In this document: positions 1-27,702 of the stretch, in pieces
How positions within the stretch are numbered: position 1 is the stretch's first letter
Layout: every line of letters starts with the position of its first letter
The notes under the pieces: model-generated
Databases searched by the model: none
Seen by the model: the letters and a program-made list of their open reading frames with translations, nothing else
Told to the model about the DNA's origin: nothing
Made by a program: the position numbers and the translations under genes
Source of the DNA: Euglena gracilis
Taxonomy: Eukaryota
Direction of reading: 5' to 3'
Assembly: GCA_039621445.1 (NCBI GenBank)
Contig: CP154954.1
Location: forward strand, 34,197,737 to 34,261,736
DNA length: 64,000 bases

Positions 1-3000
1 GCGCTCCAAAAACGAGCGCTCTGCCCCGGCTAGAGGTCGGCGATCCTTTACCTAACTGTTGCGAAGGGCGGCGGGCGGATAGCCGCAATTTTGCCCGCGG
101 CGGGCGTGCGTAAAACGCAGCCGTTACCGCCCGGGAGGCGCAAAATAGCACGTAAGTAACGGACGCCCCCAGAAACGTCATTTTTCGGCCGTTTTCGGCC
201 GAAATCGGCTGCGCCGGCGCTCCAAAAACGAGAGCTCTGCCCCGGCTAGAGGTCGGCGCTCCTTTACCTAACTGTTGCGAAGGGCGGCGGGCGGATAGCC
301 GCAATTTTGCCCGCGGGGGCGTGCGTAAAACGCAGCCGTTACCGCCCGGGAGGCGCAAAATAGCACGTAAGTAACGGACGCCCCCAGAAACGTCATTTTT
401 CGGCCGTTTTCGGCCGAAATCGGCTGCGCCGGCGCTCCAAAAACGAGCGCTCTGCCCCGGCTAGAGGTCGGCGATCCTTTACCTAACTGTTGCGAAGGGC
501 GGCGGGCGGATAGCCGCAATTTTGCCCGCGGCGGGCGTGCGTAAAACGCAGCCGTTACCGCCCGGGAGGCGCAAAATAGCACGTAAGTAACGGACGCCCC
601 CAGAAACGTCATTTTTCGGCCGTTTTCGGCCGAAATCGGCTGCGCCGGCGCTCCAAAAACGAGCGCTCTGCCCCGGCTAGAGGTCGGCGATCCTTTACCT
701 AACTGTTGCGAAGGGCGGCGGGCGGATAGCCGCAATTTTGCCCGCGGGGGCGTGCGTAAAACGCAGCCGTTACCGCCCGGGAGGCGCAAAATAGCACGTA
801 AGTAACGGACGCCCCCAGAAACGTCATTTTTCGGCCGTTTTCGGCCGAAATCGGCTGCGCCGGCGCTCCAAAAAGGAGGGCGCTCTGCCCCGGCTAGAGG
901 TCGGCGATCCTTTACCTAACTGTTGCGAAGGGCGGCGGGCGGATAGCCGCAATTTTGCCCGCGGCGGGCGTGCGTAAAACGCAGCCGTTACCGCCCGGGA
1001 GGCGCAAAATAGCACGTAAGTAACGGACGCCCCCAGGAACGTCATTTTTCGGCCGTTTTCGGCCGAAATCGGCTGCGCCGGCGCTCCAAAAACGAGCGCT
1101 CTGCCCCGGCTAGAGGTCGGCGATCCTTTACCTAACTGTTGCGAAGGGCGGCGGGCGGATAGCCGCAATTTTGCCCGCGGCGGGCGTGCGTAAAACGCAG
1201 CCGTTACCGCCCGGGAGGCGCAAAATAGCACGTAAGTAACGGACGCCCCCAGAAACGTCATTTTTCGGCCGTTTTCGGCCGAAATCGGCTGCGCCGGCGC
1301 TCCAAAAACGAGCGCTCTGCCCCGGCTAGAGGTCGGCGTCCCTTTACCTAACTGTTGCGAAGGGCGGCGGGCGGATAGCCGCAATTTTGCCCGCGGCGGG
1401 CGTGCGTAAAACGCAGCCGTTACCGCCCGGGAGGCGCAAAATAGCACGTAAGTAACGGACGCCCCAGAAAAAACATTTTTCGGCCGTTTTCGGCCGAAAT
1501 CGGCTGCGCCGGCGCTCCAAAAACGAGCGCTCTGCCCCGGCTAGAGGTCGGCGATCCTTTACCTAACTGTTGCGAAGGGCGGCGGGCGGATAGCCGCAAT
1601 TTTGCCCGCGGCGGGCGTGCGTAAAACGCAGCCGTTACCGCCCGGGAGGCGCAAAATAGCACGTAAGTAACGGACGCCCCAGATACGTCATTTTTCGGCC
1701 GTTTTCGGCCGAAATCGGCTGCGCCGGCGCTCCAAAAACGAGCGCTCTGCCCCGGCTAGAGGTCGGCGATCCTTTACCTAACTGTTGCGAAGGGCGGCGG
1801 GCGGATAGCCGCAATTTTGCCCGCGGCGGGCGTGTGTAAAACGCAGCCGTTACCGCCCGGGAGGCGCAAAATAGCACGTAAGTAACGGACGCCCCCAGAA
1901 ACGTCATTTTTCGGCCGTTTTCGGCCGAAATCGGCTGCGCCGGCGCTCCAAAAACGAGCGCTCTGCCCCGGCTAGAGGTCGGCGATCCTTTACCTAACTG
2001 TTGCGAAGGGCGGCGGGCGGATAGCCGCAATTTTGCCCGCGGCGGGCGTGCGTAAAACGCAGCCGTTACCGCCCGGGAGGCGCAAAATAGCACGTAAGTA
2101 ACGGACGCCCCCAGAAGAAGCGTCATTTTTCGGCCGTTTTCGGCCGAAATCGGCTGCGCCGGCGCTCCAAAAACGAGCGCTCTGCCCCGGCTAGAGGTCG
2201 GCGATCCTTTACCTAACTGTTGCGAAGGGCGGCGGGCGGATAGCCGCAATTTTGCCCGCGGCGGGCGTGTGTAAAACGCAGCCGTTACCGCCCGGGAGGC
2301 GCAAAATAGCACGTAAGTAACGGACGCCCCCAGAAACGTCATTTTTCGGCCGTTTTCGGCCGAAATCGGCTGCGCCGGCGCTCCAAAAACGAGCGCTCTG
2401 CCCCGGCTAGAGGTCGGCGATCCTTTACCTAACTGTTGCGAAGGGCGGCGGGCGGATAGCCGCAATTTTGCCCGCGGCGGGCGTGCGTAAAACGCAGCCG
2501 TTACCGCCCGGGAGGCGCAAAATAGCACGTAAGTAACGGACGCCCCCAGAAACGTCATTTTTCGGCCGTTTTCGGCCGAAATCGGCTGCGCCGGCGCTCC
2601 AAAAACGAGCGCTCTGCCCCGGCTAGAGGTCGGCGATCCTTTACCTAACTGTTGCGAAGGGCGGCGGGCGGATAGCCGCAATTTTGCCCGCGGCGGGCGT
2701 GCGTAAAACGCAGCCGTTACCGCCCGGGAGGCGCAAAATAGCACGTAAGTAACGGACGCCCCCAGAAACGTCATTTTTCGGCCGTTTTCGGCCGAAATCG
2801 GCTGCGCCGGCGCTCCAAAAACGAGCGCTCTGCCCCGGCTAGAGGTCGGCGATCCTTTACCTAACTGTTGCGAAGGGCGGCGGGCGGATAGCCGCAATTT
2901 TGCCCGCGGCGGGCGTGCGTAAAACGCAGCCGTTACCGCCCGGGAGGCGCAAAATAGCACGTAAGTAACGGACGCCCCCAGAAACGTCATTTTTCGGCCG

Positions 3001-6000
3001 TTTTCGGCCGAAATCGGCTGCGCCGGCGCTCCAAAAACGAGCGCTCTGCCCCGGCTAGAGGTCGGCGATCCTTTACCTAACTGTTGCGAAGGGCGGCGGG
3101 CGGATAGCCGCAATTTTGCCCGCGGCGGGCGTGCGTAAAACGCAGCCGTTACCGCCCGGGAGGCGCAAAATAGCACGTAAGTAACGGACGCCCCCAGAAA
3201 CGTCATTTTTCGGCCGTTTTCGGCCGAAATCGGCTGCGCCGGCGCTCCAAAAACGAGCGCTCTGCCCCGGCTAGAGGTCGGCGATCCTTTACCTAACTGT
3301 TGCGAAGGGCGGCGGGCGGATAGCCGCAATTTTGCCCGCGGCGGGCGTGCGTAAAACGCAGCCGTTACCGCCCGGGAGGCGCAAAATAGCACGTAAGTAA
3401 CGGACGCCCCGGAAAACGTCATTTTTCGGCCGTTTTCGGCCGAAATCGGCTGCGCCGGCGCTCCAAAAACGAGCGCTCTGCCCCGGCTAGAGGTCGGCGA
3501 TCCTTTACCTAACTGTTGCGAAGGGCGGCGGGCGGATAGCCGCAATTTTGCCCGCGGCGGGCGTGCGTAAAACGCAGCCGTTACCGCCCGGGAGGCGCAA
3601 AATAGCACGTAAGTAACGGACGCCCCCAGAAACGTCATTTTTCGGCCGTTTTCGGCCGAAATCGGCTGCGCCGGCGCTCCAAAAACGAGCGCTCTGCCCC
3701 GGCTAGAGGTCGGCGATCCTTTACCTAACTGTTGCGAAGGGCGGCGGGCGGATAGCCGCAATTTTGCCCGCGGGGGGGGCGTGCGTAAAACGCAGCCGTT
3801 ACCGCCCGGGAGGCGCAAAATAGCACGTAAGTAACGGACGCCCCCAGAAACGTCATTTTTCGGCCGTTTTCGGCCGAAATCGGCTGCGCCGGCGCTCCAA
3901 AAACGAGCGCTCTGCCCCGGCTAGAGGTCGGCGATCCTTTACCTAACTGTTGCGAAGGGCGGCGGGCGGATAGCCGCAATTTTGCCCGCGGCGGGCGTGC
4001 GTAAAACGCAGCCGTTACCGCCCGGGAGGCGCAAAATAGCACGTAAGTAACGGACGCCCCCAGAAACGTCATTTTTCGGCCGTTTTCGGCCGAAATCGGC
4101 TGCGCCGGCGCTCCAAAAACGAGCGCTCTGCCCCGGCTAGAGGTCGGCGATCCTTTACCTAACTGTTGCGAAGGGCGGCGGGCGGATAGCCGCAATTTTG
4201 CCCGCGGGGGGCGTGCGTAAAACGCAGCCGTTACCGCCCGGGAGGCGCAAAATAGCACGTAAGTAACGGACGCCCCCAGAAACGTCATTTTTCGGCCGTT
4301 TTCGGCCGAAATCGGCTGCGCCGGCGCTCCAAAAACGAGCGCTCTGCCCCGGCTAGAGGTCGGCGATCCTTTACCTAACTGTTGCGAAGGGCGGCGGGCG
4401 GATAGCCGCAATTTTGCCCGCGGCGGGCGTGCGTAAAACGCAGCCGTTACCGCCCGGGAGGCGCAAAATAGCACGTAAGTAACGGACGCCCCCAGAAACG
4501 TCATTTTTCGGCCGTTTTCGGCCGAAATCGGCTGCGCCGGCGCTCCAAAAACGAGCGCTCTGCCCCGGCTAGAGGTCGGCGATCCTTTACCTAACTGTTG
4601 CGAAGGGCGGCGGGCGGATAGCCGCAATTTTGCCCGCGGGGTGCGTGCGTAAAACGCAGCCGTTACCGCCCGGGAGGCGCAAAATAGCACGTAAGTAACG
4701 GACGCCCCCAGAAACGTCATTTTTCGGCCGTTTTCGGCCGAAATCGGCTGCGCCGGCGCTCCAAAAACGAGCGCTCTGCCCCGGCTAGAGGTCGGCGATC
4801 CTTTACCTAACTGTTGCGAAGGGCGGCGGGCGGATAGCCGCAATTTTGCCCGCGGCGGGCGTGCGTAAAACGCAGCCGTTACCGCCCGGGAGGCGCAAAA
4901 TAGCACGTAAGTAACGGACGCCCCCAGAAACGTCATTTTTCGGCCGTTTTCGGCCGAAATCGGCTGCGCCGGCGCTCCAAAAACGAGCGCTCTGCCCCGG
5001 CTAGAGGTCGGCGATCCTTTACCTAACTGTTGCGAAGGGCGGCGGGCGGATAGCCGCAATTTTGCCCGCGGCGGGCGTGCGTAAAACGCAGCCGTTACCG
5101 CCCGGGAGGCGCAAAATAGCACGTAAGTAACGGACGCCCCAGAAACGTCATTTTTCGGCCGTTTTCGGCCGAAATCGGCTGCGCCGGCGCTCCAAAAACG
5201 AGCGCTCTGCCCCGGCTAGAGGTCGGCGATCCTTTACCTAACTGTTGCGAAGGGCGGCGGGCGGATAGCCGCAATTTTGCCCGCGGCGGGCGTGCGTAAA
5301 ACGCAGCCGTTACCGCCCGGGAGGCGCAAAATAGCACGTAAGTAACGGACGCCCCCAGAAACGTCATTTTTCGGCCGTTTTCGGCCGAAATCGGCTGCGC
5401 CGGCGCTCCAAAAACGAGCGCTCTGCCCCGGCTAGAGGTCGGCGATCCTTTACCTAACTGTTGCGAAGGGCGGCGGGCGGATAGCCGCAATTTTGCCCGC
5501 GGCGGGCGTGCGTAAAACGCAGCCGTTACCGCCCGGGAGGCGCAAAATAGCACGTAAGTAACGGACGCCCCAGAAACGTCATTTTTCGGCCGTTTTCGGC
5601 CGAAATCGGCTGCGCCGGCGCTCCAAAAACGAGCGCTCTGCCCCGGCTAGAGGTCGGCGATCCTTTACCTAACTGTTGCGAAGGGCGGCGGGCGGATAGC
5701 CGCAATTTTGCCCGCGGCGGGCGTGCGTAAAACGCAGCCGTTACCGCCCGGGAGGCGCAAAATAGCACGTAAGTAACGGACGCCCCCGAAAAACGTCATT
5801 TTTCGGCCGTTTTCGGCCGAAATCGGCTGCGCCGGCGCTCCAAAAACGAGCGCTCTGCCCCGGCTAGAGGTCGGCGATCCTTTACCTAACTGTTGCGAAG
5901 GGCGGCGGGCGGATAGCCGCAATTTTGCCCGCGGCGGGCGTGCGTAAAACGCAGCCGTTACCGCCCGGGAGGCGCAAAATAGCACGTAAGTAACGGACGC

Positions 6001-8985
6001 CCCAGAAACGTCATTTTTCGGCCGTTTTCGGCCGAAATCGGCTGCGCCGGCGCTCCAAAAACGAGCGCTCTGCCCCGGCTAGAGGTCGGCGATCCTTTAC
6101 CTAACTGTTGCGAAGGGCGGCGGGCGGATAGCCGCAATTTTGCCCGCGGCGGGCGTGCGTAAAACGCAGCCGTTACCGCCCGGGAGGCGCAAAATAGCAC
6201 GTAAGTAACGGACGCCCCAGAAACGTCATTTTTCGGCCGTTTTCGGCCGAAATCGGCTGCGCCGGCGCTCCAAAAACGAGCGCTCTGCCCCGGCTAGAGG
6301 TCGGCGATCCTTTACCTAACTGTTGCGAAGGGCGGCGGGCGGATAGCCGCAATTTTGCCCGCGGCGGGCGTGCGTAAAACACAGCCGTTACCGCCGGGAG
6401 GCGCAAAATAGCACGTAAGTAACGGACGTCCCCAGAAACGTCATTTTTCGGCCGTTTTCAGCCGAAATCGGCTGCGCCGCCGCTCAAAAAACGAGCGGTC
6501 TGCCCGGGCTAGAGGTCGGCGATCCTGTACCTAACTGTTGCGAAGGGCGGCGGGCGGATAGCCGCAATTTTGCTCGCGGCGGGCGTGCGTAAAACGCAGC
6601 CGTTACCGCCGGCAGGCGCAAAATAGCACGTAAGTAACGGACGCCCCCAGAAACGTCATTTTTCGGCGATTTTCGGCCGAAATTGGCTGCGCCGGCGCTC
6701 CAAAAACGAGCGGTCTGCCCCGGCTAGAGGTCGGCGATCCTGTACCTAACTGTTGCGAAGAGCTGCGAGTGGAAAGCCGCAATTTTGCTCGCGGCGGGCG
6801 TGCGTAAAACGCAGCCGTTACCGCCCGGGAGGCGCAAAATAGCACGTAAGTAACGGACGCCCCCAGAAACGTCATTTTTCGGCCGTTTTCGGCCGAAATC
6901 GGCTGCGCCGGCGCTCCAAAAACGAGCGGTCTGCCCCGGCTAGAGGTCGGCGCTCCTTTACCTAACTGTTGCGAAGGGCGGCAGGCGAATAGCCGCAATT
7001 TTACCCGCAGCGGGCGTGCGTAAAACACAGCCGTTACCGCCGGGAGGCGCAAAATAGCACGTAAGTAACGGACGCCCCCAGAAACGTCATTTTTCGGCCG
7101 TTTTCGGCCGAAATAGGTTGCGCCGGCGCTCCAAAAACGAGCGCTCTGCCCCGGCTGGAGGTCGGTGATCCTTTACCAAACTGTTGTGAAGGGCGGCGGG
7201 CGGATAGCCGCAATTTTGCCCGCGGCGGGCGTGCGTAAAACGCAGCCGTTACCGCCCGGGAGGCGCAAAATAACACGTAAGTAACCGACGCCCCCGAAAA
7301 ACGTCATTTTTCGGCCGTTTTTGGCTGAAATCAGCTGCGCCGGCGCTCCAAAAATGAGCGCTGTGCCGCGGCTAGAGGTCGGCGATCCTTTACCTAACAG
7401 TTGCGAAGGGCTGCAGGCGGATAGCCGCAATTTTGCCCGCAGCGGGCGTGCGTAAAACACAGCCGTTACCGCCGGGAGGCGCAAAATAGCACGTAAGTAA
7501 CGGACGCCCCCAGAAACGTCATTTCGTGGCCGTTTTCGGCCGAAATCGGCTGCGCCAGCGCTCCAAAGACGAGCGCTCTGCCCCGGCTAGAGGTCGGCGA
7601 TCCTTTACCTAACTGTTGCGAAGGGCGGTGGGCGGATAGCCGCAATGTTCCTCGCGGCGGGCGTGCGTAAAACGCAGCCGTTACCGCCCGGGAGGCGCAA
7701 AATAGCACGTAAGTAACGGACGTCCCCAGAAACGTCATTTTTCGGCCGTTTTCGGCCGAAATCGGCTGCGCCGGCGCTCCAAAAACGAGCGCTCTGCCCC
7801 GGCTAGATCTCGGCGATCCTGTACCTAACTGTTGCGAAGGGCGGCGGGCGGATAGCCACAATTTTGCCCGCAGCGGGCGTGCGTAAAACACAGCCGTTAC
7901 CGCCGGGAGGCGCAAAATAGCACGTAAGTAACGGACGCCCCCAGAAACGTCATTTTTCGGCCGTTTTCGGCCGAAATCGGCTGCGCCGGCGCTCCAAAAA
8001 CGAGCGCTCTGCCCCGGCTAGAGGTCGGCGATCCTTTACCTAACTGTTGCGAAGGGCGGTGGGCGGATAGCTGCATTTTGCCCGCGGCGGGCGTGCGTAA
8101 AACGCAGCAGTTACCGCCGGGAGGCGCAAAATAGCACGTAAGTAACGGACGCCCCCGAAAAACGTCATTTTTCCGCCGTTTTCGTCCGAAATCGGCTGCG
8201 CCGGCGCTCCAAAAACGAGCGCTGTGCCCCGGCTAGGGGTCGGCGATCCTTTCCCTAACTGTTGCGAAGGGCGGCGGGCGGATAGCCGCAATTTTGCCCG
8301 CGGCCGGCGTGCGTAAAACGCAGCCGTTACCACCCGGGAGGTGCAAAATAGCACGTAAGTCTCCGACGCCCCCCAGAAACGTCATTTTCCGGCCGTTTTC
8401 GGCCGAAATCGGCTGCGCCGGCGCTCCAAAAACGAGCGCTCTGCCCCGGCTAAAAGTCGGCGATCCTTTACCTAACTGTTGCGACGAGCGCAGGGCGGAT
8501 AGCCGCAATTTTGCCCGAGGCGGGCGTGCGTAAAACGCAGCCGTTACCGCCCGGGAGGTGCAAACTAGCACGTAAGTAACGGACACCCCCAGACACCTCA
8601 TTTTTCGGCCGTTTTCGGCCGAAATCGGCTGTGCCGGCGCTCCAAAAACGAGCGCTCTGCCCCGGCTAGAGGTCGGCGATCCTGTACCTAACTGTTGCGA
8701 AGGGCGGCGGGCGGATAGCCGCAATTTTGCCCGCGGCCGGCGTGAGTAAAATGCAGCCGTTACCGCCCGGGAGGTGCAAACTAGCACGTAAGTAACGGAC
8801 GCCCCCAGAAACGTCATTTTTCGGCCGTTTTCGGCCGAAATCGGCTGCGCCGGCGCTCCAAAAACGAGCGCTCTGCCCCGGCCAGAGGTCGGCGCTCCTT
8901 TACTTAACTGTTGCGAAGGGCGGCGGGCGGATAGCCGCAATTTTGCCCGCGGCGGGCGTGAGTAAAACGCAGCCGTTACCGCCCG

Positions 8986-9214
8986 CCTGCCGGGTCATCA
9001 AATACAGAGGTAGGTGACAGGTCAGGGACTACGAGGTAGGTGACAATTTCCTGGGAGGGGGTCCGGTCCAGAGGGAAAAAATGAAGCTTTCGACCCCCTG
9101 GCCCAGAAACCCCCCAAAAATGCATGAATAATTTTTTTCATTTTTGGGTCAAACATTTGAAAATAAAAAAATCCACTCAATTCTCCAGGTGACGGGTACA
9201 GAGATAGGAGAGAG
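8986..9214. repeat. Insert X copy 1: 229-bp non-satellite sequence inserted in a satellite A monomer
   Basis: Monomer sequence TTACCGCCCG^GGAGGCGC is split cleanly (boundary ambiguous by one G). Internal direct repeat GAGGTAGGTGACA at 9007-9019 and 9033-9045; AT-rich tract at ~9115-9180. No TSD or terminal inverted repeats seen. Confidence 0.92.
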
Positions 9215-10292
9215 GGAGGCGCAAAATAGCACGCAAGTAACGGACGCCCCCAGACACGACATTTTTCGGCCGTTTTCGGCCGAAATCGGCTGCGCCGGCG
9301 CTCCAAAAACGAGCGCTCTGCCCCGGCTAGAGGTCGGCGATCCTTTACCTAACTGTTGCGAAGGGCGGCGGGCGGATAGCCGCAATTTTGCCCGCGGCGG
9401 GCGTGCGTAAAACGCAGCCGTTACCGCCCGGGAGGTGCAAAATAGCACGTAAGTAACCGACGCCCCCCAGAAACGTCATTTTTCGGCCGTTTTCGGCCGA
9501 AATCGGCTGCGCCGGCGCTCCAAAAACGAGCGGTCTGCCCCGGCTAAAGGTCGGCGATCCTTTACCTAACTGTTGTGAAGGGCGGATGGCGGATAGCCGC
9601 AATTTTGCCCGCGGCGGGCGTGCGTAAAACGCAGCCGTTACCGCCCGGGAGGCGCAAACTAGCACGTAAGTAACGGACGCCCCCAGAAACGTCATTTATT
9701 GGCCGTTTTCGGCCGAAATCGGCTGCGCCGGCACTCCAAAAACGAGCGCTCTGCCCCGGCTAGAGGTCGGCGATTCTTTACCTAACTGTTGCGAAGGGCG
9801 GCGGGCGGATAGCCGCAATTTTGCCCGCGGCGGGCGTGCGTAAAACGCAGCCGTTACCGCCCGGGAGGCGCAAAATAGCACGTAAGTAACCGACGCCCCC
9901 CAGAAACGTCATTTTTCGGCCGTTTTCGGCCGAAATCGGCTGCGCCGGCGCTCCAAAAACGAGCGGTCTGCCCCGGCTAAAGGTCGGCGATCCTTTACCT
10001 AACTGTTGTGAAGGGCGGATGGCGGATAGCCGCAATTTTGCCCGCGGCGGGCGTGCGTAAAACGCAGCCGTTACCGCCCGGGAGGCGCAAACTAGCACGT
10101 AAGTAACGGACGCCCCCAGAAACGTCATTTATTGGCCGTTTTCGGCCGAAATCGGCTGCGCCGGCACTCCAAAAACGAGCGCTCTGCCCCGGCTAGCGGT
10201 CGGCGCTCCTTTACCTAACTGTTGCGAAGGGCGGCGGGCGGATAGCCGCAATTTTGCCCGCGGCGGGCGTGCGTAAAACGCAGCCGTTACCG

Positions 10293-10529
10293 TGTGGGTC
10301 CGCGCAGATTCCTAATTACACCTGATGCCTTACTTTGCAGGTGGCAAGGGTCATGTACTGTTTGCGTTGAGTATGATTACTGCTTTTATTTTACATTGCC
10401 AGTGATCTGGGAAGGTTGGAAAGGCAGAAAAGATCAAGTTTTTGACAAGTTCAGATATCAATGAAAAAGTCCAGATTGGAGATTGCAATGCCAAGGAAAA
10501 GGCCATCTGGGCCAGGGCCCCCGCCCTCA
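10293..10529 (+). repeat. 5' LTR of element copy 1 (237 bp)
   Basis: TGTGGG...CCCTCA termini form a 5/6 inverted repeat; ~94% identical to 11286-11521. Confidence 0.9.
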
Positions 10530-10540
10530 CAAACAGTACA
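10530..10540 (+). promoter_or_regulatory. Putative self-priming primer-binding site (CAAACAGTACA)
   Basis: Abuts the 5' LTR end; exact reverse complement of TGTACTGTTTG at 10354-10364 inside the LTR; no TGG-initiated tRNA-type PBS at this position. Confidence 0.7.
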
Positions 10541-11273
10541 ACTCCCGTACAAACAGACAAGCCAAGATTATTACCACCAAGGGCGCCAATGGCCTGAGAA
10601 GAGCAAATGGAATCCGGCCAGCAAATCTCAGAAGTCAAGTCTGAAAGGAGAGAAAATGTCAAAGGATGTGTCTGACATGGCCACGCATGTGACATCGCAA
10701 TCTCCAAGATTGGAACCATCATCTGGGATTACCACTGTGGACAGGGAAGTTCAGACATATGGAGTCAAGCCCAAGCCCAGAACACTCCGGAGACGGAGGA
10801 GGCGGCAGCAGATTGCAGCCGCCAGCCGCCAGCAGGAGTAATATTTGACAGATTCGTGGGAAGATTTTACATTGCAGGCGGCTGCTGCTGTGGCTGTGGA
10901 TGGCCGCGCAATTTCAATTACTGGTGGTCGAATGTGGTCATCGCCGCGTACAGCTGTGGCAATGCCGCTGGCTGCTGCCTCTCTGGTTGTGGGTTATCCG
11001 AGCCTTTACGCAGAAACCCTCCGCCGTGTGTGATTTGGCGTCGAGGTGGTGGTAATTGGACTTGGGGATTAATGTGGCAAGCTGGTCGAAAAAGGGGGGA
11101 AGGACCAGTTTGGGACAGTTTTTCCAAAGGCTCTGGGGGGATGCTCTGGACGGTTGGGATTCCTTTTCTGTCATTGAGGCATCAATGTTGGCAAGGGCAC
11201 CCCAACGACACCCAGGGGCTCCCAGCGCTCACTGGCCTACGGTGTTGTGTGACCTTGGCGCTGACAACGTCTT

Positions 11274-11285
11274 GAAGCAGGGGGG
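11274..11285 (+). promoter_or_regulatory. Polypurine tract (plus-strand primer) of element copy 1
   Basis: GAAGCAGGGGGG immediately precedes the TG of the 3' LTR. Confidence 0.75.
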
Positions 11286-11521
11286 TGTAGGTTCGCGCAG
11301 ATTCCTAAATACACCTGCTGCCTTACTTTGCAGGTGGCAAGGGTCATGTACTGTTTGCGTGGAGTATGAGTACTGCGTTTATTTTACATTGCCAGTGATC
11401 TGGGAAGGTTGCAAGGCAGAAAAGATCAATTTTTTGACAAGTTCAGATATCACTGAAAAAGTCCAGATTCGAGATTGCAGTGCCAAGGAAAAGGCCATCT
11501 GGGCCAGGGTCCCCGCCCTCA
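11286..11521 (+). repeat. 3' LTR of element copy 1 (236 bp)
   Basis: TGTAGG...CCCTCA, followed by TSD ACCG and resumption of the satellite monomer. Confidence 0.9.
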
Positions 11522-14500
11522 ACCGCCCGGGAGGTGCAAAATAGCACGTAAGTAACGGACGCCCCCAAAACGTCATTTTTCGGCCGTTTTCAGCCGAAAT
11601 CGGCTGCGCCGGCGCTCAAAAAACGAGCGCTCTGCCCCGGCTAGAGGTCCGGGATCCTTTACCTAACTGTTGCGAAGAGCGGCGGCAGATAGCTGCATTT
11701 TTGCCAGTTGCGGGCGTGCGTAAAACGCAGCCGTTACCGCCCGGGAGGCGCAAAATAGCACGTAAGTAACCGACGCCCCCCAGAAACGTCATTTTTCGGC
11801 CGTTTTCGGCCGAAATCGGCTGCTCCGGCGATCCAAAAACGAGCGCTCTGCCCCGGCTAGAGGTCCGCGATCCTTTACCTAACTGTTGCGAAGGGCGGCG
11901 GGCGGATAGCCGCAATTTTGCCCACGGCGGGCGTGCGTAAAACGCAGCCGTTACCGCCCGGGAGGCGCAAAATAGCACGTAAGTAACGGACGCCCCCAGA
12001 AACGTCATTTTTCGGCCGTTTTCGGCCGAAATCGGCTGCGCCGGCGCTCCAAAAACGAGCGCCCTGCCCCGGCTAGAGGTCCGCGATCCTTTACCTAACT
12101 GCTGCGAAGGGCGGCGGGCGGATAGCCGCAATTTTGCCCGCGGGGGGCGTGCGTAAAACGCAGCCGTTACCGCCCGGGAGGCGCAAAATAGCACGTAAGT
12201 AACGGACGCCCCCAGAAACGTCATTTTTCGGCCGTTTCGGCCGAAATCGGCTGCGCCGGCGCCCCAAAAACGAGCGCTCTGCCCCGGCTAGAGGTCGGCG
12301 ATCCTTTACCTAACTGTTGCAAAGAGCGGCGGGCGGATAGCCGCAATTTTGCTTGCGGGGGGCGTGCGTAAAACGCAGCCATTACCGCCCGGGAGGCGCA
12401 AAATAGCACGTAAGTAACGGACGCCCCCAGAAACGTCATTTTTCGGCCGTTTTGGCCGAAATCGGCTGCGCCGGCGCCCCAAAAACGAGCGCTCTGCCCC
12501 GGCTAGAGGTCGGCGATCCTTTACCTAACTGTTGCGAAGGGCGGCGGGCGGATATCCGCAATTTTGCCCGCGGCGGGCGTGCGTAAAACGCAGCCGTTAC
12601 CGCCCGGGAGGCGCAAAATAGCACGTAAGTAACGGACGCCCCCAGAAACGTCATTTTTCGGCCGTTTTCGGCCGAAATCGGCTGCGCCGGCGCTCCAAAA
12701 ACGAGCGCTCTGCCCCGGCTAGAGGTCGGCGATCCTTTACCTAACTGTTGCGAAGGGCGGCGGGCGGATAGCCGCAATTTTTCCCGCGGCGGGCGTGTGT
12801 AAAACGCAGCCGTTACCGCCCGGGAGGCGCAAAATAGCACGTAAGTAACGGACGTCCCCGGAGACGTCATTTTTCGGCCGTTTTCGGCCGAAATCGGCTG
12901 CGCCGGCGCTCCAAAAACGAGCGCTCTGCCCCGGCTAGAGGTCGGCGCTCCTTTACCTAACTGTTGCGAAGGGCGGCGGGCGAATAGCCGCAGTTTTGCC
13001 GGCGGCGGGCGTGCGTAAAACGCAGCCGTTACCGCCCGGGAGACCCAAAATAGCACGTAAGTAACGGACGCCCCCAGAAACGTCATTTTTCGGCCGTTTT
13101 CGGCCGAAATCGGCTGCGCCGGCGCTCCGAAAACGAGCGCTCTGCCCCGGCTAGAGGTCGGCGCTCCTTTACCTAACTGTTGCGAAGGGCGGCGGGCGGA
13201 TAGCCGCAATTTTGCCGCGGCGGGCGTGCGTAAAACGCAGCCGTTACCGCCCGGGAGGCGCAAAATAGCACGTAAGTAACGGACGCCCCCAGAAACGTCA
13301 TTTTTCGGCCGTTTTCGGCCGAAATCGGCTGCGCCGGCGCTCCAAAAACGAGCGCTCTGCCCCGGCTAGAGGTCGGCGCTCCTTTACCTAACTGTTGCGA
13401 AGGGCGGCGGGCGGATAGCCGCAATTTTGCCCGCGGCGGGCGTGCGTAAAACGCAGCCGTTACCGCCCGGGAGGCGCAAAATAGCACGTAAGTAACGGAC
13501 GCCCCCAGAAACGTCATTTTTCGGCCGTTTTCGGCCGAAATCGGCTGCGCCGGCGCTCCAAAAACGAGCGCTCTGCCCCGGCTAGAGGTCGGCGCTCCTT
13601 TACCTAACTGTTGCGAAGGGCGGCGGGCGGATAGCCGCAATTTTGCCCGCGGCGGGCGTGCGTAAAACGCAGCCGTTACCGCCCGGGAGGCGCAAAATAG
13701 CACGTAAGTAACGGACGCCCCCAGAAACGTCATTTTTCGGCCGTTTTCGGCCGAAATCGGCTGCGCCGGCGCTCCAAAAACGGGCACTCTGCGATGGCTA
13801 GAGGTCGGCGCTCCTTTACCTAACTGTTGCGAAGGGCGGCGGGCGGATAGCCGCAATTTTGCCCGCGGGGGGCGTGCGTAAAACGCAGCCGTAACCGCCC
13901 GGGAGGCGCAAAATAGCACGTAAGTAAGGACGCCCCCAGGAACGTCATTTTTCGGCCTTTTCGGCCGAAATCTCCTGCGCCGGCGCCCCAAAAACGAGCG
14001 CTCTGCCCCGGCTAGAGGTCGGCGATCCTTTACCTAACTGTTGCGAAGGGCGGCGGGCGGATAGCCGCAATTTTGCCCGCGGCGGGCGTGCGTAAAACGC
14101 AGCCGTTACCGCCCGGGAGGCGCAAAATAGCACGTAAGTAACGGACGCCCCCAGAAACGTCATTTTTCGGCCGTTTTCGGCCGAAATCGGCTGCGCTGGC
14201 GCTCCAAAAACGGGCGCTCTGCCCCGGCTAGAGGTCGGCGCTCATTTACCTAACTGTTGCGAAGGGCGGCGGGCGGATAGCCGCAATTTCGCCTGCGGCG
14301 GGCGTGTGTAAAAACGCAGCCGTTACCGCCCGGGAGGCGCAAAATAGCACGTTAGTAACGGACGCCCCCAGAAACGTCATTTTTCGGCCGTTTTCGGCCG
14401 AAATCGGCTGCGCCGGCGCTCCAAAAACGAGCGCTCTGCCCCGGCTAGAGGTCGGCGATCCTTTACCTAACTGTTGCGAAGGGCGGCGGGCGGATAGCCG

Positions 14501-17500: not shown

Positions 17501-20500
17501 AAGGGCGGCGGGCGGATAGCCGCAATTTTGCCCGCGGCGGGCGTGCGTAAAACGCAGCCGTTACCGCCCGGGAGGCGCAAAATAGCACGTAAGTAACGGA
17601 CGCCCCCAGAAACGTCATTTTTCGGCCGTTTTCGGCCGAAATCGGCTGCGCCGGCGCTCCAAAAACGAGCGCTCTGCCCCGGCTAGAGGTCGGCGATCCT
17701 TTACCTAACTGTTGCGAAGGGCGGCGGGCGGATAGCCGCAATTTTGCCCGCGGCGGGCGTGCGTAAAACGCAGCCGTTACCGCCCGGGAGGCGCAAAATA
17801 GCACGTAAGTAACGGACGCCCCCAGAAACGTCATTTTTCGGCCGTTTTCGGCCGAAATCGGCTGCGCCGGCGCTCCAAAAACGAGCGCTCTGCCCCGGCT
17901 AGAGGTCGGCGATCCTTTACCTAACTGTTGCGAAGGGCGGCGGGCGGATAGCCGCAATTTTGCCCGCGGCGGGCGTGCGTAAAACGCAGCCGTTACCGCC
18001 CGGGAGGCGCAAAATAGCACGTAAGTAACGGACGCCCCCAGAAACGTCATTTTTCGGCCGTTTTCGGCCGAAATCGGCTGCGCCGGCGCTCCAAAAACGA
18101 GCGCTCTGCCCCGGCTAGAGGTCGGCGCTCCTTTACCTAACTGTTGCGAAGGGCGGCGGGCGGATAGCCGCAATTTTGCCCGCGGGGGGCGTGCGTAAAA
18201 CGCAGCCGTTACCGCCCGGGAGGCGCAAAATAGCACGTAAGTAACGGACGCCCCCAGAAACGTCATTTTTCGGCCGTTTTCGGCCGAAATCGGCTGCGCC
18301 GGCGCTCCAAAAACGAGCGCTCTGCCCCGGCTAGAGGTCGGCGATCCTTTTCCCTACTGTTGCGAAGGGCGGCGGGCGGATAGCCGCAATTTTGCCCGCG
18401 GCGGGCGTGCGTAAAACGCAGCCGTTACCGCCCGGGAGGCGCAAAATAGCACGTAAGTAACGGACGCCCCCAGAAACGTCATTTTTCGGCCGTTTTCGGC
18501 CGAAATCGGCTGCGCCGGCGCTCCAAAAACGAGCGCTCTGCCCCGGCTAGAGGTCGGCGATCCTTTACCTAACTGTTGCGAAGGGCGGCGGGCGGATAGC
18601 CGCAATTTTGCCCGCGGCGGGCGTGCGTAAAACGCAGCCGTTACCGCCCGGGAGGCGCAAAATAGCACGTAAGTAACGGACGCCCCCAGAAACGTCATTT
18701 TTCGGCCGTTTTCGGCCGAAATCGGCTGCGCCGGCGCTCCAAAAACGAGCGCTCTGCCCCGGCTAGAGGTCGGCGATCCTTTACCTAACTGTTGCGAAGG
18801 GCGGCGGGCGGATAGCCGCAATTTTGCCCGCGGCGGGCGTGCGTAAAACGCAGCCGTTACCGCCCGGGAGGCGCAAAATAGCACGTAAGTAACGGACGCC
18901 CCCAGAAACGTCATTTTTCGGCCGTTTTCGGCCGAAATCGGCTGCGCCGGCGCTCCAAAAACGAGCGCTCTGCCCCGGCTAGAGGTCGGCGATCCTTTAC
19001 CTAACTGTTGCGAAGGGCGGCGGGCGGATAGCCGCAATTTTGCCCGCGGCGGGCGTGCGTAAAACGCAGCCGTTACCGCCCGGGAGGCGCAAAATAGCAC
19101 GTAAGTAACGGACGCCCCCAGAAACGTCATTTTTCGGCCGTTTTCGGCCGAAATCGGCTGCGCCGGCGCTCCAAAAACGAGCGCTCTGCCCCGGCTAGAG
19201 GTCGGCGATCCTTTACCTAACTGTTGCGAAGGGCGGCGGGCGGATAGCCGCAATTTTGCCCGCGGCGGGCGTGCGTAAAACGCAGCCGTTACCGCCCGGG
19301 AGGCGCAAAATAGCACGTAAGTAACGGACGCCCCCAGAAACGTCATTTTTCGGCCGTTTTCGGCCGAAATCGGCTGCGCCGGCGCTCCAAAAACGAGCGC
19401 TCTGCCCCGGCTAGAGGTCGGCGATCCTTTACCTAACTGTTGCGAAGGGCGGCGGGCGGATAGCCGCAATTTTGCCCGCGGCGGGGCGTGCGTAAAACGC
19501 AGCCGTTACCGCCCGGGAGGCGCAAAATAGCACGTAAGTAACGGACGCCCCCAGAAACGTCATTTTTCGGCCGTTTTCGGCCGAAATCGGCTGCGCCGGC
19601 GCTCCAAAAACGAGCGCTCTGCCCCGGCTAGAGGTCGGCGATCCTTTACCTAACTGTTGCGAAGGGCGGCGGGCGGATAGCCGCAATTTTGCCCGCGGCG
19701 GGCGTGCGTAAAACGCAGCCGTTACCGCCCGGGAGGCGCAAAATAGCACGTAAGTAACGGACGCCCCCAGAAACGTCATTTTTCGGCCGTTTTCGGCCGA
19801 AATCGGCTGCGCCGGCGCTCCAAAAACGAGCGCTCTGCCCCGGCTAGAGGTCGGCGATCCTTTACCTAACTGTTGCGAAGGGCGGCGGGCGGATAGCCGC
19901 AATTTTGCCCGCGGGGGGCGTGCGTAAAACGCAGCCGTTACCGCCCGGGAGGCGCAAAATAGCACGTAAGTAACGGACGCCCCCAGAAACGTCATTTTTC
20001 GGCCGTTTTCGGCCGAAATCGGCTGCGCCGGCGCTCCAAAAACGAGCGCTCTGCCCCGGCTAGAGGTCGGCGATCCTTTACCTAACTGTTGCGAAGGGCG
20101 GCGGGCGGATAGCCGCAATTTTGCCCGCGGCGGGCGTGCGTAAAACGCAGCCGTTACCGCCCGGGAGGCGCAAAATAGCACGTAAGTAACGGACGCCCCC
20201 AGAAAAGTCATTTTTCGGCCGTTTTCGGCCGAAATCGGCTGCGCCGGCGCTCCAAAAACGGGCACTCTGCCCCGGCTAGAGGTCGGCGATCCTTTACCTA
20301 ACTGTTGCGAAGGGCGGCGGGCGGATAGCCGCAATTTTGCCCGCGGCGGGCGTGCGTAAAACGCAGCCGTTACCGCCCGGGAGGCGCAAAATAGCACGTA
20401 AGTAACGGACGCCCCCAGAAACGTCATTTTTCGGCCGTTTTCGGCCGAAATCGGCTGCGCCGGCGCTCCAAAAACGAGCGCTCTGCCCCGGCTAGAGGTC

Positions 20501-23500
20501 GGCGATCCTTTACCTAACTGTTGCGAAGGGCGGCGGGCGGATAGCCGCAATTTTGCCCGCGGGGGGCGTGCGTAAAACGCAGCCGTTACCGCCCGGGAGG
20601 CGCAAAATAGCACGTAAGTAACGGACGCCCCCAGAAACGTCATTTTTCGGCCGTTTTCGGCCGAAATCGGCTGCGCCGGCGCTCCAAAAACGAGCGCTCT
20701 GCCCCGGCTAGAGGTCGGCGATCCTTTACCTAACTGTTGCGAAGGGCGGCGGGCGGATAGCCGCAATTTTGCCCGCGGCGGGCGTGCGTAAAACGCAGCC
20801 GTTACCGCCCGGGAGGCGCAAAATAGCACGTAAGTAACGGACGCCCCAAGAAACGTCATTTTTCGGCCGTTTTCGGCCGAAATCGGCTGCGCCGGCGCTC
20901 CAAAAACGAGCGCTCTGCCCCGGCTAGAGGTCGGCGATCCTTTACCTAACTGTTGCGAAGGGCGGCGGGCGGATAGCCGCAATTTTGCCCGCGGCGGGCG
21001 TGCGTAAAACGCAGCCGTTACCGCCCGGGAGGCGCAAAATAGCACGTAAGTAACGGACGCCCCCATTTTTCGGCCGTTTTCGGCCGAAATCGGCTGCGCC
21101 GGCGCTCCAAAAACGAGCGCTCTGCCCCGGCTAGAGGTCGGCGATCCTTTACCTAACTGTTGCGAAGGGCGGCGGGCGGATAGCCGCAATTTTGCCCGCG
21201 GCGGGCGTGCGTAAAACGCAGCCGTTACCGCCCGGGAGGCGCAAAATAGCACGTAAGTAACGGACGCCCCCAGAAACGTCATTTTTCGGCCGTTTTCGGC
21301 CGAAATCGGCTGCGCCGGCGCTCCAAAAACGAGCGCTCTGCCCCGGCTAGAGGTCGGCGATCCTTTACCTAACTGTTGCGAAGGGCGGCGGGCGGATAGC
21401 CGCAATTTTGCCCGCGGCGCGTGCGTAAAACGCAGCCGTTACCGCCCGGGAGGCGCAAAATAGCACGTAAGTAACGGACGCCCCCAGAAACGTCATTTTT
21501 CGGCCGTTTTCGGCCGAAATCGGCTGCGCCGGCGCTCCAAAAACGAGCGCTCTGCCCCGGCTAGAGGTCGGCGATCCTTTACCTAACTGTTGCGAAGGGC
21601 GGCGGGCGGATAGCCGCAATTTTGCCCGCGGCGGGCGTGCGTAAAACGCAGCCGTTACCGCCCGGGAGGCGCAAAAATAGCACGTAAGTAACGGACGCCC
21701 CCAGAAACGTCATTTTTCGGCCGTTTTCGGCCGAAATCGGCTGCGCCGGCGCTCCAAAAACGAGCGCTCTGCCCCGGCTAGAGGTCGGCGATCCTTTACC
21801 TAACTGTTGCGAAGGGCGGCGGGCGGATAGCCGCAATTTTGCCCGCGGCGGGCGTGCGTAAAACGCAGCCGTTACCGCCCGGGAGGCGCAAAATAGCACG
21901 TAAGTAACGGACGCCCCCAGAAACGTCATTTTTCGGCCGTTTTCGGCCGAAATCGGCTGCGCCGGCGCTCCAAAAACGAGCGCTCTGCCCCGGCTAGAGG
22001 TCGGCGATCCTTTACCTAACTGTTGCGAAGGGCGGCGGGCGGATAGCCGCAATTTTCCCCAGGCGGGCGTGCGTAAAACGCAGCCGTTACCGCCCGGGAG
22101 GCGCAAAATAGCACGTAAGTAACGGACGCCCCCAGAAACGTCATTTTTCGGCCGTTTTCGGCCGAAATCGGCTGCGCCGGCGCTCCAAAAACGAGCGCTC
22201 TGCCCCGGCTAGAGGTCGGCGATCCTTTACCTAACTGTTGCGAAGGGCGGCGGGCGGATAGCCGCAATTTTGCCCGCGGGGGCGTGCGTAAAACGCAGCC
22301 GTTACCGCCCGGGAGGCGCAAAATAGCACGTAAGTAACGGACGCCCCCAGGAACGTCATTTTTCGGCCGTTTTCGGCCGAAATCGGCTGCGCCAAAAACG
22401 AGCGCTCTGCCCCGGCTAGAGGTCTGCGCTCCTTTACCTAACTGTTGCGAAGGGCAGCGGGCGGATAGCCGCAATTTTCCCCAGGCGGGCGTGCGTAAAA
22501 CGCAGCCGTTACCGCCCGGGAGGCGCAAAATAGCACGTAAGTAACGGACGCCCCCAGAAACGTCATTTTTCGGCCGTTTTCGGCCGAAATCGGCTGCGCC
22601 GGCGCTCCAAAAACGAGCGCTCTGCCCCGGCTAGAGGTCGGCGATCCTTTACCTAACCGTTGCGAAGGGCGGCGGGCGGATAGCCGCAATTTTGCCCGCG
22701 GGGGCGTGCGTAAAACGCAGCCGTAACCGCCCGGGAGGCGCAAAATAGCACGTAAGTAACGGACGCCCCCAGGAACGTCATTTTTCGGCCGTTTTCGGCC
22801 GAAATCGGCTGCGCCAAAAACGAGCGCTCTGCCCCGGCTAGAGGTCGGCGCTCCTTTACCTAACTGTTGCGAAGGGCAGCGGGCGGATAGCCGCAATTTT
22901 GCCCGCGGCGGGCGTGCGTAAAACGCAGCCGTTACCGCCCGGGAGGCGCAAAATAGCACGTAAGTAACGGACGCCCCCAGAAACGTCATTTTTCGGCCGT
23001 TTTCGGCCGAAATCGGCTGCGCCGGCGCTCCAAAAACGAGCGCTCTGCCCCGGCTAGAGGTCGGCGATCCTTTACCTAACTGTTGCGAAGGGCGGCGGGC
23101 GGATAGCCGCAATTTTGCCCGTGGCGGGCGTGCGTAAAACGCAGCCGTTACCGCCCGGGAGGCGCAAAATAGCACGTAAGTAACGGACGCCCCCAGAAAC
23201 GTCATTTTTCGGCCGTTTTCGGCCGAAATCGGCTGCGCCGGCGCTCCAAAAACGAGCGCTCTGCCCCGGCTAGAGGTCGGCGCTCCTTTACCTAACTGTT
23301 GCGAAGGGCGGCGGGCGGATAGCCGCAATTTTGCCCGCGGCGGGCGTGCGTAAAACGCAGCCGTTACCGCCCGGGAGGCGCAAAATAGCACGTAAGTAAC
23401 GGACGCCCCCCAGAAACGTCATTTTTCCGCCGTTTTCGGCCGAAATCGGCTGCGCCGGCGCTCCAAAGACGAGCGCTCTGCCGCGGCTAGAGGTCGGCGA

Positions 23501-26500
23501 TCCTTTATCTAACTGTTGCGAAGGGCGGCGGGCGGATATCCGCAATTTTGCCCGCTGCGGGCGTGCGTGAAACGCAGCCGTTACCGCCCGGGAGGCGCAA
23601 AATAGCACGTAAGTAACGGACGTCCCCAGAAACGACATTTTTCGGCCGTTTTCGGCCGAAATCGGGTGCGCCGGCGCTCCAAAAACGAGCGGTCTGCGCC
23701 GGCTAGAGGTCGGCGATCCTGTACCTAACTGTTGCAAAGGGCGGCGGGCGGAAAGCCGCAATTTTGCTCGCGGCGGGCGTGCGTAAATCACAGCCGTTAC
23801 CGCCCGGGAGGCGCAAAATAGCTCGTAAGTAACGAACGCCCCCCAGAAACGTCATTTTTCGGCCGTTTTCGGCCGGAATCGGCTGCGCCGGCGCTCCAAA
23901 AACGAGCGCTCTGCCCCGGCTAGAGGTCGGCGATCCTGTACCTAACTGTTGCGAAGGGCGGCGGGCCGAAAGCCGCAATTTTGCTCGCGGCGGGCGTGCG
24001 TAAAACGCAGCCGTTACCGCCGGCAGGCGCAAAATAGCACGTAAGTAACGGACGTCCCCAGAAACGTCATTTTTCGGCCCTTTTCGGCCGAAATCGGCTG
24101 CGCCGGCGCTCCAAAAACGAGCGGTCTGCCCCGGCTAGAGGTCGCGATCCTGTACCTAACTGTTGCAAAGGGCGGCGGGCGGATAGCCGCAATTTTGCCC
24201 GCGGCGGGCGTGCCTAAAACGCAGCCGTTACCGCCCGGGAGGCGCAAAATAGCACGTAAGTAACGGACATCCCGAGAAACGTCATTTTCGGCCGTTTTCG
24301 GCCGAAATCGGCTGCGCCGCCGCTCCAAGAACGAGCGGTCTGCCCCGGCTAGAGGTCGGCGATCCTGTACCTAACTGTTGCGCAGGGCGGCGGGCGGATA
24401 GCCGCAATTTTGCCCGCGGCGGGCGTGCGTAAAACGCAGCCGTTACCGCCCGTGAGGCGCAAAATAGCACGTAAGTAACCGACGCCCCCGAAAAACGTCA
24501 TTTTTCGGCCGTTTTCGGCCGAAATCGGCTGCACCGGCGCTCCTAAAACGTGCGCTCTGCCCCGGCTAGAGGTCGGCGATCCTTTACCTAACTGTTGCGA
24601 AGGGCGGCGGGCGGATAGCCGCAATTTTGCCCGCGGCGGGCGTGCGTAAAACGCAGCCGTTACCGCCCGTGAGGCGCAAAATAGCACGTAAGTAACCGAC
24701 GCCCCCGAAAAACGTCATTTTTCGGCCGTTTTCGGCCGAAATCGGCTGCACCGGCGCTCCTAAAACGTGCGCTCTGCCCCGGCTAGAGGTCGGCGATCCT
24801 TTAACTAACTGTTGCGAAGGGCGGCAGGCGGATAGCCGCAATTTTGCTCGCAGCGGGCGTGCGTAAAACACAGCCGTTACCGCCGGGAGGCGCAAAATAG
24901 CACGTAAGTAACGGACGTCCCCAGAAACGTCATTTTTCGGCCGTTTTCAGCCGAAATCGGCTGCGCCGCCGCTCAAAAAACGAGCGGTCTGCCCGGGCTA
25001 GAGGTCGGCGATCCTGTACCTAACTGTTGCGAAGGGCGGCGGGCGGATAGCCGCAATTTTGCTCGCGGCGGGCGTGCGTAAAACGCAGCCGTTACCGCCG
25101 GCAGGCGCAAAATAGCACGTAAGTAACGGACGCCCCCAGAAACGTCATTTTTCGGCGATTTTCGGCCGAAATTGGCTGCGCCGGCGCTCCAAAAACGAGC
25201 GGTCTGCCCCGGCTAGAGGTCGGCGATCCTGTACCTAACTGTTGCGAAGAGCTGCGAGTGGAAAGCCGCAATTTTGCTCGCGGCGGGCGTGCGTAAAACG
25301 CAGCCGTTACCGCCCGGGAGGCGCAAAATAGCACGTAAGTAACGGACGCCCCCAGAAACGTCATTTTCGGCCGTTTTCGGCCGAAATCGGCTGCGCCGGC
25401 GCTCCAAAAACGAGCGGTCTGCCCCGGCTAGAGGTCGGCGATCCTTTACCTAACTGTTGCGAAGGGCGGCGGGCGGATAGCCGCAATTTTGCCCGCGGCG
25501 GGCGTGCGTAAAACACAGCCGTTACCGCCCGGGAGGCGCAAAATAGCACGTAAGTAACGGACGCCCCCAGAAACGTCATTTTTCGGCCGTTTTCGGCCGA
25601 AATCGGCTGCGCCGGCGCTCCAAAAACGAGCGCTCTGCCCCGGCTAGAGGTCGGTGATCCTTTACCAAACTGTTGTGAAGGGCGGCGGGCGGATAGCCGC
25701 AATTTTGCCCGCGGCGGGCGTGCGTAAAACGCAGCCGTTACCGCCGGGAGGCGCAAAATAGCACGTAAGTAACGGACGCCCCCAGAAACGTCATTTCGTG
25801 GCCGTTTTCGGCCGAAATCGGCTGCGCCGGCGCTCCAAAAAGGAGCGCTCCGCCCCGGCTAGAGGTCGGCGATCCTTTACCTAACTGTTGCGAAGGGCGG
25901 CGGGCGGATAGCCGCAATGTTCCTCGCGGCGGGCGTGCGTAAAACGCAGCCGTTACCGCCCGGGAGGCGCAAAATAGCACGTAAGTAACGGACGTCCCCA
26001 GAAACGTCATTTTTCGGCCGTTTTCGGCCGAAATCGGCTGCGCCGGCGCTCCAAAAACGAGCGGTCTGCCCCGGCTAGAGGTCGGCGATCCTGTACCTAA
26101 CTGTTGCGAAGGGCGGCAGGCGGATAGCCACAATTTTGCCCGCAGCGGGCGTGCGTAAAACACAGCCGTTACCGCCGGGAGGCGCAAAATAGGACGTAAG
26201 TAACGGACGCCCCCAGAAACGTCATTTTTCGGCCGTTTTCGGCCGAAATCGGCTGCGCCGGCGCTCCAAAGACGAGCGCTCTGCCCCGGCTAGAGGTCGG
26301 CGATCCTTTACCTAACTGTTGCGAAGGGCGGTGGGCGGATAGCTGCATTTTGCCCGCGGCGGGCGTGCGTAAAACGCAGCAGTTACCGCCGGGAGGCGCA
26401 AAATAGCACGTAAGTAACGGACGCCCCCGAAAAACGTCATTTTTCCGCCGTTTTCGTCCGAAATCGGCTGCGCCGGCGCTCCAAAAACGAGTGCTGTGCC

Positions 26501-27041
26501 CCGGCTAGGGGTCGGCGATCCTTTCCCTAACTGTTGCGAAGGGCGGCGGGCGGATAGCCGCAATTTTGCCCGCGGCCGGCGTGCGTAAAACGCAGCCGTT
26601 ACCACCCGGGAGGTGCAAAATAGCACGTAAGTCTCCGACGCCCCCCAGAAACGTCATTTTCCGGCCGTTTTCGGCCGAAATCGGCTGCGCCGGAGCTCCA
26701 AAAACGAGCGCTCTGCCCCGGCTAAAAGTCGGCGATCCTTTACCTAACTGTTGCGAAGGGCGGCGGGCGGATAGCCGCAATTTTGCCCGCGGCCGGCGTG
26801 AGTAAAATGCAGCCGTTACCGCCCGGGAGGTGCAAACTAGCACGTAAGTAACGGACGCCCCCAGAAACGTCATTTTTCGGCCGTTTTCGGCCGAAATCGG
26901 CTGCGCCGGCGCTCCAAAAACGAGCGCTCTGCCCCGGCCAGAGGTCGGCGCTCCTTTACCTAACTGTTGCGAAGGGCGGCGGGCGGATAGCCGCAATTTT
27001 GCCCGCGGCGGGCGTGAGTAAAACGCAGCCGTTACCGCCCG

Positions 27042-27270
27042 CCTGCCGGGTCATCAAATACAGAGGTAGGTGACAGGTCAGGGACTACGAGGTAGGTGAC
27101 AATTTCCTGGGAGGGGGTCCGGTCCAGAGGGAAAAAATGAAGCTTTCGACCCCCTGGCCCAGAAACCCCCCAAAAATGCATGAATAATTTTTTTCATTTT
27201 TGGGTCAAACATTTGAAAATAAAAAAATCCACTCAATTCTCCAGGTGACGGGTACAGAGATAGGAGAGAG
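27042..27270. repeat. Insert X copy 2 (229 bp)
   Basis: Apparently identical to 8986-9214 and at the same monomer site. Confidence 0.92.
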
Positions 27271-27702
27271 GGAGGCGCAAAATAGCACGCAAGTAACGGA
27301 CGCCCCCAGACACGACATTTTTCGGCCGTTTTCGGCCGAAATCGGCTGCGCCGGCGCTCCAAAAACGAGCGCTCTGCCCCGGCTAGAGGTCGGCGATCCT
27401 TTACCTAACTGTTGCGAAGGGCGGCCGGCGGATAGCCGCAACATTGCCCGCGGCGGGCGTGCGTAAAACGCAGCCGTTACCGCCCGGGAGGTGCAAAATA
27501 GCACGTAAGTAACGGACGTCCCCAGAAACGTCATTTCTTGGCCGTTTTCGGCCGAAATCGGCTGCGCCGGCGCTCCAAAAACGAGCGCTCTGCCCCGGCC
27601 AGAGGTCGGCGCTCCTTTACTTAACTGTTGCGAAGGGCGGCGGGTGGATAGCCGCAATTTTGCCCGCGGCGGGCGTGCATAAAACGCAGCCGTTACCGCC
27701 CG

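Follow-up and report, generated by a model that had tools for sequence, protein, structure and literature searches.

The Tf1 element of Schizosaccharomyces pombe uses its own RNA as the primer for reverse transcription: bases 1 to 11 of that RNA pair with its primer-binding site (PBS), and cleavage falls between bases 11 and 12 (PMC7175516). A similar complementarity between the 5' LTR and the PBS has been proposed for Tj1 of S. japonicus, which is active in transposition assays (PMC4600332). Complementarity between LTR and PBS has served as the criterion by which self-priming is predicted in many fungal and vertebrate elements (PMC6934838, PMC6317226). In a survey of plant LTR elements, 12% were predicted to prime themselves, in the Tcn1 and TAR lineages, and 2% were found to use half-tRNA primers (PMC6317226).

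Among small elements, TRIMs are defined by a length of less than 1000 bp, terminal repeats of 100-250 bp and a PBS complementary to a tRNA (PMC6934838). Skipper and biv-TRIM are without a conventional PBS, and their mechanism is not clear (for biv-TRIM: PMC6934838); the available text of that source proposes no self-complement for biv-TRIM and describes no self-priming miniature LTR element. A literature search of limited coverage for Euglena together with self-priming, judged by titles, returned nothing on retroelements. The genome of E. gracilis measures 2.37 Gb, of which LTR elements make up 22-33% (PMC11252322), and chromodomain-bearing Ty3-like elements have been reported in this species (2026 preprint).

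The element described here lies in a window of 64,000 nt of E. gracilis DNA. As in Tf1 and Tf2 of S. pombe and Tj1 of S. japonicus, its predicted PBS adjoins the 5' LTR and complements LTR sequence, no tRNA primer would be needed, and the length of the pairing is 11 nt, the same as in Tf1. Tf1, Tf2 and Tj1 are autonomous chromoviruses, whereas the Euglena element is without gag-pol; and the mechanism of Tf1 was shown by experiment in a fungus, whereas the element of the euglenid is likened to it by its sequence. An LTR-adjacent site that complements the LTR is likewise the criterion for the Tf1/sushi elements of fungi and vertebrates, the chromoviruses of the Tcn1 clade and the TAR-lineage Ty1/copia elements of plants. 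These are coding elements that were placed by RT/RH/INT phylogeny, whereas the Euglena element has no such genes and is not placeable in that way.

A small LTR element within a satellite array

The whole window consists of two satellites, a 216-bp repeat at positions 1-30613 and a 213-bp repeat at 30614-64000. The 216-bp repeat is GC-rich, with 93-94% matches, and gives way abruptly at 30613/30614 to the unrelated 213-bp repeat, which has 77% matches and a higher-order period of 426 bp. Short sub-arrays of a 140-bp unit occupy 47553-51656.

The 216-bp array is broken twice, at 10293-11521 and at 28798-30026, each time by one complete small LTR element on the plus strand. In the first copy, a 5' LTR of 237 bp (10293-10529, TGTGGG...CCCTCA) is 94% identical to a 3' LTR of 236 bp (11286-11521). 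The internal region beyond the predicted PBS (10541-11273) is followed by the polypurine tract (PPT) GAAGCAGGGGGG at 11274-11285, which adjoins the TG of the 3' LTR. The intact satellite monomer reads GCCGTTACCGCCCGGG, and the interrupted monomer reads ...GTTACCG, then the element, then ACCGCCCGGG. The single ACCG of the monomer is therefore found on both sides of the insertion, with junctions of ...GTTACCG/TG...CA/ACCGCCC, and is the target-site duplication (left copy 10289-10292, right copy 11522-11525, both on the plus strand). With TG..CA direct repeats, a target-site duplication and a PPT before the 3' LTR, the insertion has the structure by which LTR retrotransposons are recognised. The right edge of the LTR is confirmed outside the window, by contigs from two public sequencing runs (X1 and X19), which pass into unrelated letters precisely after 10529.

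Differences between the two copies are confined to 5 of 1229 sites, and flanks and target duplication are common to both. They lie within a segmental duplication of the 216-bp array, in which 1-12108 corresponds to 18506-30613 at an offset of 18,505 bp; the LTR element was carried along, and the duplicated satellite on its two sides aligns collinearly, at about 97% for 8.5 kb and for 2.7 kb. Given the few differences, the common flanks and the common target duplication, the two copies represent one old insertion, duplicated at a later time along with the satellite around it, and there are only two independent LTRs. In both copies, identity between the 5' LTR and the 3' LTR is 94.1-94.5%, with 14 differences listed for the copy at 10293-11521.

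The first-pass annotation described a miniature LTR element and compared it with TRIMs, and the design does resemble that of a TRIM: the LTRs are short (237 bp, within the range of 100-250 bp), a non-coding interior between PBS and PPT ends in the PPT, there is a target duplication, and the copy number is high. TRIMs are, however, shorter than 1000 bp and carry a tRNA-complementary PBS, by the definition in PMC6934838, whereas this element is 1229 bp long and is without a TGG-type site. For these two reasons it is not a TRIM. It shares with biv-TRIM the lack of a conventional PBS.

Complementarity between the LTR and the primer-binding position

The predicted PBS, CAAACAGTACA, occupies 10530-10540 on the plus strand and starts at the first base behind the 5' LTR. 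Its reverse complement occurs without a mismatch as TGTACTGTTTG at 10354-10364, also on the plus strand (nucleotides 62-72 of the LTR), which is the putative self-primer and is predicted to make up nt 1-11 of the transcript. The pairing extends over 11 nt and no further, with a mismatch at either side. The window holds six exact copies of the 11-mer and none with one mismatch. Three belong to the first element (10354+, 10530- and 11347+, the last at 11347-11357 in the 3' LTR) and three to the second (28859+, 29035- and 29852+). The chance expectation in the window is 0.67, and six copies were reached in 0 of 100 shuffles. Markov simulation (400,000 trials) put the chance frequency of an exact match of 11 nt at offset 0 at 1.05e-4, and that of a match under a relaxed rule (at least 9 nt, offset 0-3) at 4.2e-3. 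The same anchored test at the three remaining LTR borders gave matches of 0, 0 and 4 nt. The complementarity is real and beyond chance at reasonable levels.

No TGG was found in the 30 nt behind the LTR. An exact anchored complement, the absence of TGG and the right polarity together form the criterion used in the field to predict Tf1-type self-priming, and all three are found here. Much of what the first-pass annotation had reported about this site thus stands. Both the letters themselves and the 11-mer search reproduce the exact complement behind the 5' LTR; the site is without a TGG-type tRNA PBS, as had been stated; and a predicted primer whose 3' end abuts the LTR boundary fits the anatomy, with the 11-mer anchored at 10530. 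Two reservations made at that stage also hold, namely that the plus strand of the LTR is without AATAAA and that U3 on the self-priming reading is only 61 nt long. The annotation had further counted the 11-mer as unchanged in all four LTRs. Unchanged it is, with 0 of the 14 differences between 5' and 3' LTR inside it, but the count of four takes one insertion twice, and two LTRs are independent. Part of the PBS, ACAAACAG, is repeated 19 nt downstream (GTACAAACAGACA, 10548-10558), where it makes a second 7-nt match to the CTGTTTG of the LTR 11-mer.

Folding predictions were also made for the RNA, and an 11-bp helix between 10354-10364 and 10530-10540 is present in all of the folds, whatever 5' end is assumed, with the PBS paired in each. 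In the minimum-free-energy structure this helix forms the closing stem. Ten of its 11 pairs have probabilities of 0.96-1.0, the terminal pair 10354-10540 has 0.56-0.88, and the 11-bp duplex alone has an energy of -13.5 kcal/mol. For 10354-10545 the fold scores z = -2.67, and an equally good fold arises in 2 of 200 shuffles. A 5-bp hairpin, AGGGC/GCCCU, is predicted in the minimum-free-energy fold at 10514-10527 on the plus strand (stem 10514-10518 with 10523-10527), 2 nt before the PBS, and the change from C to T at 10518 in the 3' LTR would retain a G-U pair in it. In Tf1 and in retroviruses a U5-IR stem sits at that position, just before the PBS, and the predicted hairpin may have a like role. 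The internal R-U5 helices of the fold were rejected as unsupported: the letters that the family majority has at 10368 and 10377 would disrupt two.

Further motifs lie close to the 11-mer. A TATA-like TAATTA at 10313-10318 on the plus strand, 36-41 nt upstream, reads TAAATA in the 3' LTR by a difference at 10316, and might act as a promoter element. At 10329-10342, 13 nt upstream of the putative primer, CCTTACTTTGCAG-G forms a pyrimidine run followed by AG that resembles a splice acceptor; speculatively, it could be of consequence in a host that adds spliced leaders.

There is also a second exact complement of 11 nt, between the interior at 10697-10707 (GCAATCTCCAA) and U5 at 10476-10486 (TTGGAGATTGC), which is not anchored at an LTR border. 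About 0.04 such matches are expected by chance, and the family-majority A at 10697 leaves 10 nt of it. Chance may have produced it, or it may reflect a long-range contact in the RNA; either way, words complementary to the LTR are not unique to the PBS site.

Family copies and coding capacity

Part of the element is contained in 20 public sequencing runs, most of them from one organism, and the best of them has 0.32 of the element's words. Contigs of four runs (X1, X15, X16 and X19) were aligned to the element, those of X1 at 85% likeness; such contigs show neither RNA ends nor transcription, and libraries labelled as RNA may contain DNA. X1 provided 593 contigs, of which 164 are at least 99% identical to the element, 242 are at 95-99%, 147 at 90-95% and 40 below 90%. 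This spread indicates a family with many diverged members, and the majority letters of the family differ from the window copy at many sites.

Among the 40 variant rows listed, of 60, none falls in either 11-mer, with 593 X1 contigs aligned. In X15, record 11 is a contig from an RNA library of another study, and all 11 of its 11 substitutions and its 3-nt gap are placed outside 10530-10540, so that its PBS is identical to that of the window. Some differences have no placed position and could fall in an 11-mer: 1 of 7 in record 9 of X15, 1 of 27 in record 13 of X16 and 6 of 16 in record 17 of X19. In a minor contig of X1, of depth 80.9, the stretch 10349-10420 is missing or has other sequence in its place, the 11-mer included. 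At a divergence of about 4-5%, all 22 bases would stay unchanged in about one case of three, so the conservation is not significant, and the unchanged 11-mer of the two LTRs is weak evidence.

The contigs also differ from the window copy in structure. Contigs of X15 and X16, both labelled as RNA, carry about 108 extra letters at 11062-11065, and X1 contigs are loose-ended there; the window copy appears to have lost a stretch of about 108 nt between 4-nt repeats, which most family members retain. The summed depth of the X1 contigs is 9,209 at 10531-10564, compared with 227,030 before and 51,797 after, with a stepwise rise inward, although contig depth is no measure and the dip does not count as evidence here. 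In record 4 of X1, the PBS and interior are joined to 34 unmatched letters upstream, and the family may have members that differ in LTR end or leader. In X15 and X16, contigs go from interior through LTR to interior, which collapsed LTRs, tandem elements or library DNA would explain equally well.

The claim that the element is non-coding was borne out by several searches. Its stop-to-stop frames are only short or of odd composition. No Pfam family scored above the cut-off in six frames, the best being HEAT_EZ with an E of 0.016, which is below the cut-off. No Rfam family was found, mir-2241 (E 0.83) being far below the gathering score, and the window has no tRNA genes. With the longest frame (199 aa) as the query, an exhaustive profile search brought up nothing but P0002 and P0004. 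Of these, P0004, a translated tandem repeat of 2848 aa, is matched via a short repeated word and was rejected as spurious. A protein search with the plus-frame ORF returned only P0002, the nearest database relative, whose source label, eukprot:EG_transcript_43538, is of a style found in papers on Euglena gracilis. This diverged relative tracks one window frame for about 60 residues and a different one from there on, which indicates that the reading frame is not kept by selection. P0002 covers the PBS, not the primer region, and has K where the window reads T, so that there is at least one change, at nucleotide 5 of the PBS. The minus-frame ORF retrieved only P0003, a JGI protein from the minus strand of a relative, which ends before the primer region and retains VVLFV across the PBS, fixing about 7 of its 11 bases. 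The LTR-frame ORF had no match in protein searches.

Judged from these frames and searches, the element is non-autonomous, and protein searches with its ORFs found no autonomous partner. A scan of metagenomes with a 22-nt word of the LTR gave 2 loci, each with a match of only 25-29 nt, which were set aside as chance; P0003 suggests that this word varies in relatives. Scans of viral contigs and of prokaryote genome contigs gave 0 matches.

Self-priming and its alternatives

Tf1-type self-priming, predicted here from the sequence criterion, is the best reading of the element and more likely right than not. The 11-mer is anchored at a boundary for which the target duplication and the contigs of other runs are independent evidence, and this counts for self-priming, as do the length and geometry in common with Tf1, the TATA-like motif, the identical PBS of the X15 contig, the VVLFV of P0003 and the occurrence of chromodomain-bearing Ty3-like elements in the host lineage. 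Counted against it are the U3 of only 61 nt, the lack of a plus-strand AATAAA in the LTR, the changed PBS of P0002, the X1 contig in which the 11-mer is missing or replaced, the unanchored second complement and the single insertion event in the window.

The pairing of LTR and PBS could instead be real and selected but serve as an RNA structure, for masking or presentation of the PBS, for packaging or for dimerisation, the primer then coming from the host, for instance an internal tRNA fragment or another small RNA. To abut the LTR, any such primer needs ...CTGTTTG-3' as its end, which is exactly what the LTR of the element itself provides. Mature tRNA 3' ends (CCA) are excluded, since there is no TGG behind the LTR, whereas unconventional primers, among them the half-tRNAs used by 2% of plant elements, have been recognised or suspected elsewhere, Skipper and biv-TRIM being the cases without a conventional PBS. 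The complement between U5 and the interior (10476-10486 with 10697-10707) hints at long-range pairing for purposes other than priming, and the 11-mer is the 5' end of the RNA by prediction; but the complementarity at the PBS stops exactly at the LTR boundary, which is needed for priming and not for a mere stem. This alternative is judged unlikely.

Retroelement particles usually package two RNAs, which would allow the same 11-mer primer to be supplied in trans, by the RNA of another family copy or of a packaged autonomous partner. The very many family variants in the host, as seen in the 593 X1 contigs, would offer such donors, but the intramolecular helix is predicted to be stable, with high pair probabilities for 10 of its 11 pairs, and priming in trans appears distinctly improbable. 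Least probable of all, and very unlikely, is that the complementarity arose by chance in an old, decayed element (its LTRs are 94% alike) whose real primer site is elsewhere or lost: although so many windows were screened that events at the 1e-4 level are expected somewhere, and another 11-nt complement of the LTR does lie in the internal region, the anchored probability, even under the relaxed rule, has to be set against a sizeable prior for self-priming (12% of plant elements), and the PBS is both identical in the RNA-library contig of the other study and kept at the amino-acid level in P0003.

On the self-priming reading, the 1229-bp element would be copied in trans by the enzymes of an autonomous partner; we infer both this mobilisation and what sort of partner is involved. 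The start of transcription would lie at 10354 or beside it, which would divide the LTR into a U3 of 61 nt (10293-10353) and an R plus U5 of 176 nt (10354-10529). The first 11 nt of the RNA would then fold back onto the PBS at 10530-10540, and cleavage behind nucleotide 11 would fall to the RNase H in the reverse transcriptase of the partner. The 3' G of the primer pairs with the first base past the LTR, so that extension would copy U5: the freed 3' end, abutting the LTR boundary, would be extended through 10529-10365, to yield strong-stop DNA of 165 nt joined to 11 nt of RNA.

The mechanism itself is already established for Tf1 and widely predicted elsewhere, and its understanding is unchanged by this element. 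The degree of surprise attached to the element in the first-pass annotation was overstated, given that self-priming had already been predicted in 12% of surveyed plant LTR elements. Non-autonomous derivatives normally retain the cis signals of their parents, and a self-priming non-autonomous element is therefore expected rather than surprising. A fuller account, in which Tf1-type self-priming operates in a euglenid, on a non-coding and abundant host repeat of about 1.2-1.3 kb that is a parasite of a chromovirus-like partner, whose RNase H must recognise a fold-back duplex on a foreign RNA, is tentative, and slightly likelier to be wrong in some part than right throughout. In a bolder extension, loss of the RNA 5' end could make replication indifferent to the sequence upstream of the 11-mer, which could matter with trans-spliced leaders.

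If the self-priming reading is true, self-primed reverse transcription would be extended to Euglenozoa, far beyond fungi, vertebrates and plants. An element with no genes would be seen to multiply greatly with only its LTRs, an 11-nt pair of self-primer and PBS, and a PPT, which would amount to a minimal list of the cis requirements for mobilisation in trans. The pair of 11-mers would also be a sequence handle for finding the autonomous partner in a genome of which LTR elements make up 22-33% (PMC11252322).
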